Below, piece by piece: positions 35,092-36,657 of a stretch of 64,000 nt of DNA (position 1 is the stretch's first letter; each line of letters begins with the position of its first letter). The position numbers and the translations under genes were made by a program. The notes beneath the pieces were generated by a model. The model was not told the DNA's origin and ran no database searches. It was given only the letters and a program-made list of their open reading frames with translations. This DNA is from Escherichia coli O127:H6 str. E2348/69 (GTDB lineage Bacteria > Pseudomonadota > Gammaproteobacteria > Enterobacterales > Enterobacteriaceae): assembly GCF_000026545.1 (NCBI RefSeq), contig NC_011601.1. One strand, 5' to 3'.

Positions 35092-35099
35092 CTGTGCGG
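35092..35099. repeat. target-site duplication (left copy, ctgtgcgg) of the IS50-like element
   Basis: ctgtgcgg immediately precedes IR-L and immediately follows IR-R (36650-36657). Confidence 0.8.
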
Positions 35100-36649
35100 C
35101 TGTCTCTTGATCAGATCTCCTGATCAAGAGACTTCATCACCAGGTAACCCTCAACCATATCCTGAAGTCTGAACCAGCCATCCCACATGACTACCCAACC
35201 GGGGCGACCGGTGCGTTTGCTGTCATGCCATCGCCCCAGTTTCGCCAGTTTCAGACAGGCCCATTTCAGTGTCGGCATCTGTGACGGAAGCGGTTTTCCT
35301 TCCAGCTTAACCCACAGCAGTTTCCACTCTGTCGGCGTCAGTATTTTCTCACAGCTGTCATTTTGTGTTTCTTCACTGATACCGCCCTGCCGCAGGCCCA
35401 GCACCCGCACCGCGATAAACGCCTTGATAACCACCATGCGCTCGAGGTTATCCCGGGTCTGCATTCGCAGCGATTCCACACATGTACCACCACTTTTCCA
35501 CGCCTTGTGGTATTCCTCTATCAGCCAGCGTCGCTCGTAATGGCTGACGATACGTCGCGCATCGGCGGCACTCGCCACTTTTTCTGACGTCAGCAGATGC
35601 CAGCAGGCGCCGTCCTCTGCCTGCTCCCGGCAACAGACATACGTGAGCGGGAGCGCCTGGCCGCTGTTGTCGGGATTTTTTATGCTGACTTCGCTGTAAC
35701 TGATGAACATCCGGGCCTGGCGGGCTGCCCGCCCGCCTTTTTGCATCACATTCAGCGTGTGGCTTCCCGCGGTTGCCAGGACTTCCGGCAGTTCGAAGAG
35801 CTTGCCGGGTGCTTCTTCCAGCCGGCGATTCTGTGCTGCACGCACCACGAAGCGCTGCCCGTGGCTGACTTTATAATGCAGGTAATGCCAGATATCCGCT
35901 TCCCGGTCACAGACAGTGATTACCCGTTTCTGTATCTCCCCCAGCCATTCGGCCATGCGCTCCGAAGCCTGCTGCCAGCGGTAACTTTCTTTTTCTTCAT
36001 AGGGACGTTCTTTTCGCTGGTGCTTAACACCGTAGGTGTCCGTGGCACGACTCCAGCGCTGCTGTTCGATAAGACCGACTGGCAGGGCGCTGTCGGGGGC
36101 GTACATCAGGACAGAGTGAGCCAGCAGCCCGCGCGTCTTCGGGTTAGTGGTGGTATTCCCCAGGTCATCAGATGCCGTACTGTGACTGAAGTTAATGGTG
36201 GTGGTGTCTTCCAGCGCGAGGAGCAGCGGATGAGCCTCACATGCCCTTACAGTGGCGGTAAATCCGGCTTCGGCAATGGCTTGCGGGGACACAGACGGGT
36301 TACGTATCAGGCGGTACGCACCTTCAACCTGAGCAGTGGACTGGGATGATTTCACAATAGAAAGACCTGCATGCTGAGCGAGAGAAGAGGCCAGTGACAC
36401 AAGGCGTCGTGTACGACGCGGATCACCGAGACGGGCATGTCCAAACTGCTCGTTAGCCCATGAATAACAATCAGAAAGTACCATAACAGACCCGAAGAAA
36501 ATGAAATATAAGAGAAGATCAACAGGTGAGGAAAAAGTTCAAAAAATCGCTGCCGGGGAGGAAGGAAACTACCGGATGGAAAGAGTCCCCCTAAAGCAGA
36601 CTGACAGACATCACAAATCCCCGGGTGGGGATTTGTGTATAAGAGACAG
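35100..36649 (-). mobile_element. IS4-family, IS50-like insertion sequence (about 1.55 kb)
   Basis: Ends ctgtctcttgatcagatct (35100-35118, matches the Tn5/IS50 inside-end as I recall it) and ctgtctcttatacacaaat (reverse complement of 36631-36649, outside/mosaic-end-like); Tn5-Tnp-like transposase; flanked by TSD. Confidence 0.9.
35111..36484 (-). CDS. IS50-like (Tn5 Tnp-like) DDE transposase
   Basis: 457 aa with blocks GDPRRTRRLV, AYRLIRNP, LALEDTT, VCDREADI, RFVVRA, HYERRWLIEEYHKAWKSG, DNLERMV, MDSKRTG; stop overlaps the left IR as in IS50. Confidence 0.9.
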   Translation of the reverse strand: MVLSDCYSWANEQFGHARLGDPRRTRRLVSLASSLAQHAGLSIVKSSQSTAQVEGAYRLIRNPSVSPQAIAEAGFTATVRACEAHPLLLALEDTTTINFSHSTASDDLGNTTTNPKTRGLLAHSVLMYAPDSALPVGLIEQQRWSRATDTYGVKHQRKERPYEEKESYRWQQASERMAEWLGEIQKRVITVCDREADIWHYLHYKVSHGQRFVVRAAQNRRLEEAPGKLFELPEVLATAGSHTLNVMQKGGRAARQARMFISYSEVSIKNPDNSGQALPLTYVCCREQAEDGACWHLLTSEKVASAADARRIVSHYERRWLIEEYHKAWKSGGTCVESLRMQTRDNLERMVVIKAFIAVRVLGLRQGGISEETQNDSCEKILTPTEWKLLWVKLEGKPLPSQMPTLKWACLKLAKLGRWHDSKRTGRPGWVVMWDGWFRLQDMVEGYLVMKSLDQEI

Positions 36650-36657
36650 CTGTGCGG
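36650..36657. repeat. target-site duplication (right copy, ctgtgcgg)
   Basis: See left copy. Confidence 0.8.

Follow-up and report, generated by a model that had tools for sequence, protein, structure and literature searches.

An intact ISEc13 copy in a hairpin loop of an STnc100-family small RNA gene of prophage PP6 in Escherichia coli E2348/69

The DNA analysed here, referred to as the window, is a stretch of 64,000 nucleotides from the chromosome of Escherichia coli O127:H6 strain E2348/69, an stx-negative enteropathogenic E. coli (EPEC). It corresponds to NC_011601 1,408,001-1,472,000 (offset 1,408,000). The coordinates were fixed by the general feature format file of Pearl Mizrahi et al. 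2021 (PMC8550237), from which the assignment to prophage PP6 and the locus tags E2348C_1407 (antiterminator Q), E2348C_1408 (transposase) and E2348C_1409 (esterase) were also taken. PP6 is a lambdoid prophage integrated beside ompW, with genes from the integrase to the tail fibre in the RefSeq annotation. Its late region carries a complete insertion sequence (IS), ISEc13, between the Q gene with the adjoining tRNA cluster and a nanS-p-type sialate O-acetylesterase gene (Table 1). Window positions 34692-35012 align with 87% identity to the tRNA promoter (pT), the three tRNAs and the terminator of the Shiga toxin (Stx) phage 933W. Annotations of E2348C_1409 orthologues read SASA family carbohydrate esterase or 9-O-acetyl-N-acetylneuraminic acid deacetylase.

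Table 1. Features at the ISEc13 insertion in prophage PP6, with positions in the window
Feature	Position	Strand	Basis or remark
Q antiterminator gene E2348C_1407	33845-34534		upstream of IS
Phage tRNA cluster, three tRNAs, homologous to 933W ileZ-argN-argO	34730-34970	+	tRNA scan and 933W alignment
tRNA-cluster terminator	34986-35003	+	terminator scan
stxAB-cassette-equivalent point	~35012-35015	+	933W homology breaks here
5' part of split STnc100 gene, 52 nt	35048-35099	+	outer-helix 5' arm, hairpin 1 5' arm (CCCCT) and loop (GTGCGG)
Left target-site duplication copy CTGTGCGG	35092-35099	.	read in sequence; single in uninterrupted relatives
ISEc13, 1550 bp, IS4 family, IS50 subgroup	35100-36649	- (strand of transposase gene)	sequence read and RefSeq-annotated copies
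Left terminal inverted repeat CTGTCTCTTGATCAGATCT	35100-35118	.	two GATC sites; transposase stop codon inside
Transposase gene E2348C_1408, WP_000244358.1, 457 aa, intact	35111-36484	-	uninterrupted open reading frame, sole long one in IS
Right terminal inverted repeat, reverse complement CTGTCTCTTATACACAAAT	36631-36649	.	read in sequence
Right target-site duplication copy CTGTGCGG	36650-36657	.	read in sequence
3' part of split STnc100 gene, 139 nt, with terminator hairpin 36766-36785	36658-36796	+	RF02076 and terminator-like site
Hfq-bound small RNA candidate 'E2348C_1409.E2348C_1408.IGR', EcOnc08/21/42 homologue	36797-36978	-	PMC8550237 Table S6, NC_011601 1444797-1444978
nanS-p-type sialate O-acetylesterase gene E2348C_1409, 617 aa	37019-38872	+	first late gene downstream of IS

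The two junctions of the element read gaatcccc CTGTGCGG / CTGTCTCTTGATCAGATCT ... ATTTGTGTATAAGAGACAG / CTGTGCGG aggggcaat. A sequence-only reading of this DNA had described an intact IS50-like element of the IS4 family with a Tn5-type transposase at 35092-36657, bracketed by a target-site duplication and located between the Q-tRNA cluster and nanS-p. This description agrees with the present results: the span equals the IS plus both copies of the duplication, the quoted ends are those at the junctions, and the neighbouring genes are as named. The length of the repeat, given there as ambiguous between 8 and 9 bp, is exactly 8 bp. A C (35091) precedes the left copy and the terminal G of the IS precedes the right copy, while the first C of the IS follows the left copy and an A follows the right one. 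Because the bases flanking both CTGTGCGG copies differ, a 9-bp repeat is impossible without a mismatch, and the empty site and the sister copies rule it out as well. An 8-bp duplication was also found in eight of nine other distinct full-length ISEc13 copies from E. coli genomes. Since relatives have an uninterrupted site with one CTGTGCGG and sister copies share the 8-bp duplication, the repeat is no chance match. Compared with the empty site, the window contains 1558 bp of extra DNA, that is 1550 + 8.

The two 19-bp ends agree with each other at 13 positions and both start with CTGTCTCTT (5'-NT, CTG...), as the IS50 subgroup requires. The left end agrees with the inside end of IS50 at 19 of 19 positions, GATC sites included, and the right end agrees with the IS50 outside end at 17 of 19. 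Perfect hairpins lie just within the two ends: one of 13 bp (35102-35114 / 35120-35132) on the left, and one of 11 bp (36612-36622 / 36627-36637) that overlaps the inner part of the right terminal repeat. They could stop read-through into the transposase gene or hide where it begins, a role that fold-back structures play in IS10 and IS50.

The element showed 99.9% nucleotide identity to RefSeq-annotated ISEc13 over the full 1550 bp. In E2348/69, ISEc13 occurs at about 30 places in the chromosome, with more copies on plasmid pMAR2, and the PP6 copy is 1 nt off the other copies of this strain (a synonymous-level difference). Iso-forms of an IS diverge by <2% in amino-acid and/or <5% in nucleotide sequence (PMC2266710). 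The PP6 element lies within these limits relative to elements named 'IS4-like element ISEc13 family transposase' by the Prokaryotic Genome Annotation Pipeline (PGAP), which served as a proxy. With the same ends, an identical protein and 8-bp duplications in the sister copies, there is no difference of substance to the catalogued copies. The element is an ordinary ISEc13 copy, and both the copy and its location were already known from the annotation of a reference genome that appeared in 2009.

The transposase was matched by the NCBIfam model transpos_IS4_3 with 511.6 bits (cut-off 160) and by the Pfam families Tnp_DNA_bind (PF14706), DDE_Tnp_1 (PF01609) and Dimer_Tnp_Tn5 (PF02281). The crystallised Tn5 transposase (PDB) aligned with it from end to end (E = 7e-83, 42% identity). 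The DDE residues D93, D193 and E323, spaced by 99 and 129 residues, were aligned to the catalytic motifs of Tn5, and the Y(2)R(3)E(6)K signature is present as Y316-R319-E323-K330 in YERRWLIEEYHKAWK. De Palmenaer et al. 2008 (PMC2266710) define the IS4 family by this signature and by a D(60-110)D(100-150)E spacing. Both were found here, along with a single open reading frame, short inverted repeats and a duplication of about one helix turn. The end sequence and the Tn5-type N-terminal DNA-binding and C-terminal dimerisation domains place the element in the IS50 subgroup.

Like IS50 in Tn5, ISEc13 has one transposase gene, which begins ~165 bp inside the outside-end-like end and stops within the inside-end-like end, and its product keeps the DNA-binding, DDE and Tn5 dimerisation domains with the DDE and YREK residues. 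It differs in that the transposase is only 42% identical to theirs and that no composite transposon exists at the PP6 locus. IS50 has 1534 bp and generates a 9-bp duplication, compared to 1550 bp and 8 bp here. With this amino-acid identity and duplication length the element falls outside IS50 proper, which requires identity to the IS50R transposase at the level of iso-forms and a 9-bp duplication; it can be considered as IS50-like in mechanism yet not IS50. A second ISEc13 copy was not found within the window, and a composite transposon or a second close copy was ruled out. The only other IS4-family sequence in the window is an unrelated pseudogene adjoining adhE (~200-1400), with a frameshift and an internal stop according to RefSeq and no nucleotide similarity to ISEc13.

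Transposase mRNA was detected and was about 3-fold higher in an hfq deletion mutant, with reads that are not assignable to a single copy; the log2 fold change without Hfq was 1.6 for E2348C_1408 and 1.95 for E2348C_0010. Hfq repression of IS10 and IS50 is known and matches this rise. As IS50-type elements are tightly down-regulated, the PP6 copy could be a dead relic, an intact-looking but immobile scar. This is unlikely in view of the full-length reading frame with all catalytic residues, the two complete ends identical to those of ~30 sister copies, and the detected transcripts. In addition, the protein is identical to the widespread WP_000244358.1, which occurs in many strains, and the ~30 near-identical copies imply that the family has been active recently.

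For the empty-site comparison, the flanks were joined in silico with one CTGTGCGG and searched against complete E. coli genomes. Dozens of prophages, that of O104:H4 included, aligned in one piece over the joined junction with ~93-94% identity. The empty site of AR_0372, which has neither the IS nor stx, reads ...GGTGAATCCCCCTGTGCGGAGGGGCAATCAGCG... (short form ...GGTGAATCCCCCTGTGCGGAGGGGCAATCAG...). In an Stx1a phage a 29-bp block over the junction was 100% identical, and 933W was colinear over the junction with 73% identity. Because these homologues have contiguous flanks and a single CTGTGCGG, the insertion was simple and nothing was deleted. The sequence-only reading had argued for the same from the intact repeat, and the comparison that it proposed gave contiguous flanks with one CTGTGCGG in stx-negative as well as stx-positive phages. 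Its description of the site as the stx slot of an Stx phage has to be revised on both counts, since PP6 belongs to an stx-negative EPEC and the point equivalent to the stx cassette lies 85 bp upstream of the IS. It identified neither the element as ISEc13 nor the target as a small RNA gene.

The position of that point was derived from 933W. The 1.33-kb cassette with stx2AB (1913-3244 of the 933W locus, L006) has no counterpart in the window between 35012 and 35015, and from 35015 on the window matches 933W beginning 42 bp past the stx2B stop codon. The sequence into which the IS inserted is homologous to the stretch that follows stxB. A Stx-converting prophage would carry stxAB after the Q/tRNA region and ahead of the esterase and lysis genes; PP6 has no such genes there, and tblastn with the Stx1 and Stx2 subunits gave no stx remnant in the window (best E-value 3.2).

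The IS lies near the point where Stx phages carry stx, and IS-associated stx loss is documented in Shiga toxin-producing E. coli (STEC). PP6 might accordingly have been a Stx-converting prophage from which stxAB was removed by an IS-mediated adjacent deletion or by recombination between two IS copies. The probability of such an event is negligible, as it is refuted by the empty-site comparison. In relatives with neither the IS nor stx, the STnc100 gene described below likewise follows the tRNA terminator directly, so that the absence of stx is unrelated to the IS. Moreover, the 8-bp duplication is intact, the 85 bp between the cassette point and the IS are colinear with stx-negative and stx-positive phages, and the window contains neither a stx remnant nor the second ISEc13 copy that recombination would involve.

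Stx1, Stx2 and stx-negative phages share a strikingly conserved region downstream of the stx slot, which was assigned by Rfam to the small RNA (sRNA) family STnc100 (RF02076, gathering threshold 47 bits). The scores were 207.7 bits for 933W, 190.7 bits for the Stx1 phage and 139.2 bits for the empty-site relative (L001 3365-3555). In the window the family is split in two. The 5' fragment gave a weak match (35048-35177, 23.6 bits), while the 3' fragment was recognised at 36620-36796 with 75.5 bits, above the threshold. The consensus hairpin 1 of the family, CCCCu-GuGCGG-aGGGG, is located exactly at the insertion point, and CTGTGCGG comprises the last two stem bases and the six loop bases of this hairpin. 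After rejoining in silico, the PP6 sequence folded into the architecture of the family. As in Stx phages, the gene comes after the stx slot and before the esterase gene; in PP6 it directly follows the tRNA terminator, because this phage type has no stx cassette.

STnc100 was described 75 nt downstream of stx2 (PMC12370729) and shows a structural relationship to PasD1 and PasD2, two sRNAs of E2348/69 that are abundant and bound by Hfq (bioRxiv 10.64898/2026.05.13.724894). PasD1 maps to PP4 and PasD2 to PP2 (741157-741328), so that the PP6 locus is a separate, disrupted paralogue. PasD1 and PasD2 are intact and abundantly expressed, whereas the PP6 family member is split by the IS, and we infer that it is inactivated. 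An identity of the remnant downstream of the IS with PasD2, possibly driven from the IS end, was ruled out by the location of PasD2 in PP2. The tables from RIL-seq, in which interacting RNAs are ligated and sequenced, contained no entry in the tRNA30-IS interval. For STnc100, a sigma-70 promoter was sought at the conserved TTGACA (35034-35039), where no acceptable -10 element was found at the right spacing and the promoter scan was blank.

The choice of a hairpin loop is in agreement with other ISEc13 insertions. At eight of ten distinct E. coli sites, CCC was found at most 6 nt upstream and GGG at most 6 nt downstream of the duplication, a pattern that occurs at 0.22% of the window positions (binomial p ~2.5e-20). 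The resulting preference, CCC(Y)-N8-(R)GGG, corresponds to the loops of GC-stem hairpins, several of which are obvious terminators. Orthologous hairpins (ybaY/MGMT, ibs) were occupied in different strains and in E. whittamii. Similar flanks were observed around related elements in Budvicia, Rahnella, Serratia and E. whittamii, with duplications not scorable at many of the matches in other species, these being 35-bp palindromic mini-elements or contig ends. Tn5 differs in that it has a weak A-GNTYWRANC-T consensus in place of the CCC-N-GGG hairpin-type palindromes. Parallels are IS1397 and ISKpn1 of the IS3 family, which insert in the loops of repetitive extragenic palindromic (REP) sequences, or palindromic units (PU), and IS231A of the IS4 family, which targets GGG-N5-CCC. 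These elements resemble ISEc13 in that insertion is directed to the middle of short GC-rich palindromes or of hairpin loops and recurs at orthologous sites, but they have transposases of other families or subgroups and other motifs. A published account of the ISEc13 target preference was not found in searches that returned resistome and mobilome surveys and did not cover ISfinder.

Unexpectedly, the same nucleotide of STnc100 is occupied by an ISEc13-type element in a second context. UTI89 carries a frameshifted ISEc13-like element (L002 3747-5629) with 96.4% identity at the identical nucleotide of the STnc100 5' half (...CCCTGTGCGG/CTGTCTCTT), in a phage remnant that consists of a tRNA-Arg and this 5' half and adjoins iroB. 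Its right flank is unrelated and it has no duplication. The left junction of the UTI89 type was found in 424 genomes, plasmids included. Both junctions of the PP6 insertion were 100% identical only in three assemblies of the E2348/69 lineage.

An ancient insertion in an ancestral STnc100 gene, inherited by PP6 and the iroB-side remnant, would account for an element with 96% identity at exactly the same position in UTI89 and many other genomes, and E2348/69 and UTI89 both belong to phylogroup B2. The PP6 copy would then be the founder of the expansion in E2348/69. Such a common origin is improbable. In the two contexts the 90-bp flank shares only 78.9% identity, compared to 96.4% for the IS (Fisher p = 4e-9), which means that flank and IS have different histories. 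The PP6 copy is also within 1 nt of the other E2348/69 copies, and the right junction with the duplication was found only in E2348/69. This argues for independent hits in PP6 and beside iroB and against a common origin. Such hits are plausible, since ISEc13 does not choose its sites at random and orthologous hairpins (ybaY/MGMT, ibs) were used repeatedly. It is somewhat favoured, at slightly better than even chances, that ISEc13 and its close relatives, unlike Tn5, insert specifically, with an 8-bp stagger centred on CCC(Y)-N8-(R)GGG hairpin loops. Terminators and structured sRNA genes would be preferred targets, and hairpin 1 of STnc100 would be a hot spot that was hit independently in PP6 and in the iroB-side remnant.

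Taken together, the locus is very probably the result of a recent ISEc13 transposition in the E2348/69 lineage into PP6, a clean insertion in the hairpin 1 loop of STnc100 with duplication of 8 bp and nothing deleted. Following the Tn5 paradigm, a dimer of the DDE transposase would bind the two 19-bp ends, excise the element and join it to the target DNA with an 8-bp stagger, and gap repair would then yield the CTGTGCGG duplication. The target was the loop of the first hairpin (CCCCT-GTGCGG-AGGGG) of the phage sRNA gene, a site that fits the preference for CCC(Y)-N8-(R)GGG palindromes. The outcome is an sRNA gene in parts of 52 nt (5') and 139 nt (3') and a late operon with 1558 bp added in antisense between Q and the tRNAs on one side and the esterase and lysis genes on the other; the insertion never removed stx. 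A plus-strand terminator-like hairpin is present inside the IS at 35719-35737; the Q-modified RNA polymerase should ignore it, and late transcription under Q antitermination would still pass through the IS.

Several points weigh against this interpretation or its parts. A PP6 relative with at least 99% identity and without the IS was not found among the genomes searched. The date of the insertion is read only from the near-identity of the ISEc13 copies, which gene conversion could also yield. The name ISEc13 follows the RefSeq/PGAP annotation and not the ISfinder reference entry. Mobility of the PP6 copy is suggested indirectly, by the intact reading frame and ends, the ~30 near-identical copies and the transcripts. 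The target preference was drawn from about ten E. coli sites, some of them paralogous (ibs loci), and not from an unbiased library. Finally, the PP6 copy of STnc100 was only putatively functional before the insertion.

Concerning its significance, little is at stake: the IS is catalogued, no toxin gene was removed and nothing new is learned about stx loss. One STnc100/PasD-family sRNA locus of the EPEC prototype strain appears to be knocked out by an IS, which is relevant to the mapping of prophage sRNAs. Homing of ISEc13 to hairpin loops, if true, would explain the frequent IS-related sequences beside prophage sRNA genes and predicts that IS expansions damage terminators and sRNAs as a side effect. 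The shared junction in the iroB-side phage remnant of UTI89 could mark the history of that region. Only the hairpin-loop targeting and the recurrent STnc100 hit might merit limited further work.

Two further observations concern ISEc13 and its relatives. The pMAR2 copy between finO and hok (L009) has no duplication, and its flanks each resemble half of a different CCCTCT...AGAGAGG-type target, which suggests recombination between two ISEc13 copies. In Serratia silvae, S. proteamaculans, Salmonella diarizonae, Escherichia sp. MOD1-EC7003 and Budvicia aquatica, a perfect 35-bp palindrome, CTGTCTCTTGATCAG-ATCTC-CTGATCAAGAGACAG, was found (L029-L033, L038, L046 and L048-L050). It consists of two inside-end-type ISEc13 ends back to back without a transposase and occupies the middle of host palindromes, for example CCCTCTCCCACAGGG...CCCTGTGGGAGAGGG. 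It could represent a mini-element, a MITE (a miniature transposable element with inverted repeats) or a footprint.

The sRNA candidate on the minus strand next to the IS (Table 1) has its own terminator (36825-36804) and is untouched by the insertion. It formed many RIL-seq chimeras (e.g. with the cfa 5' untranslated region), lies at the position equivalent to AsxR/AgvB and converges on the STnc100 remnant. The middle phage tRNA (34807-34882) was predicted as tRNA-Lys(ttt) by ARAGORN, is absent from the annotation of CP059840.2 and is a tRNA-Arg (argN) in relatives and 933W. For the tRNA at the argN position of 933W, the original authors themselves flagged the anticodon assignment as uncertain. 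PP6 contains two Q-type antiterminator genes (28810-29331 and 33845-34534), between which a block of three genes in the opposite orientation and a hokD/sok module (31655-31830; sok RF01794, 117 bits) were found. This arrangement indicates a mosaic late-control region. The validated EPEC sRNA PasB (NC_011601 1466261-1466343, PP6) corresponds by coordinate conversion to 58261-58343 on the minus strand of the window.

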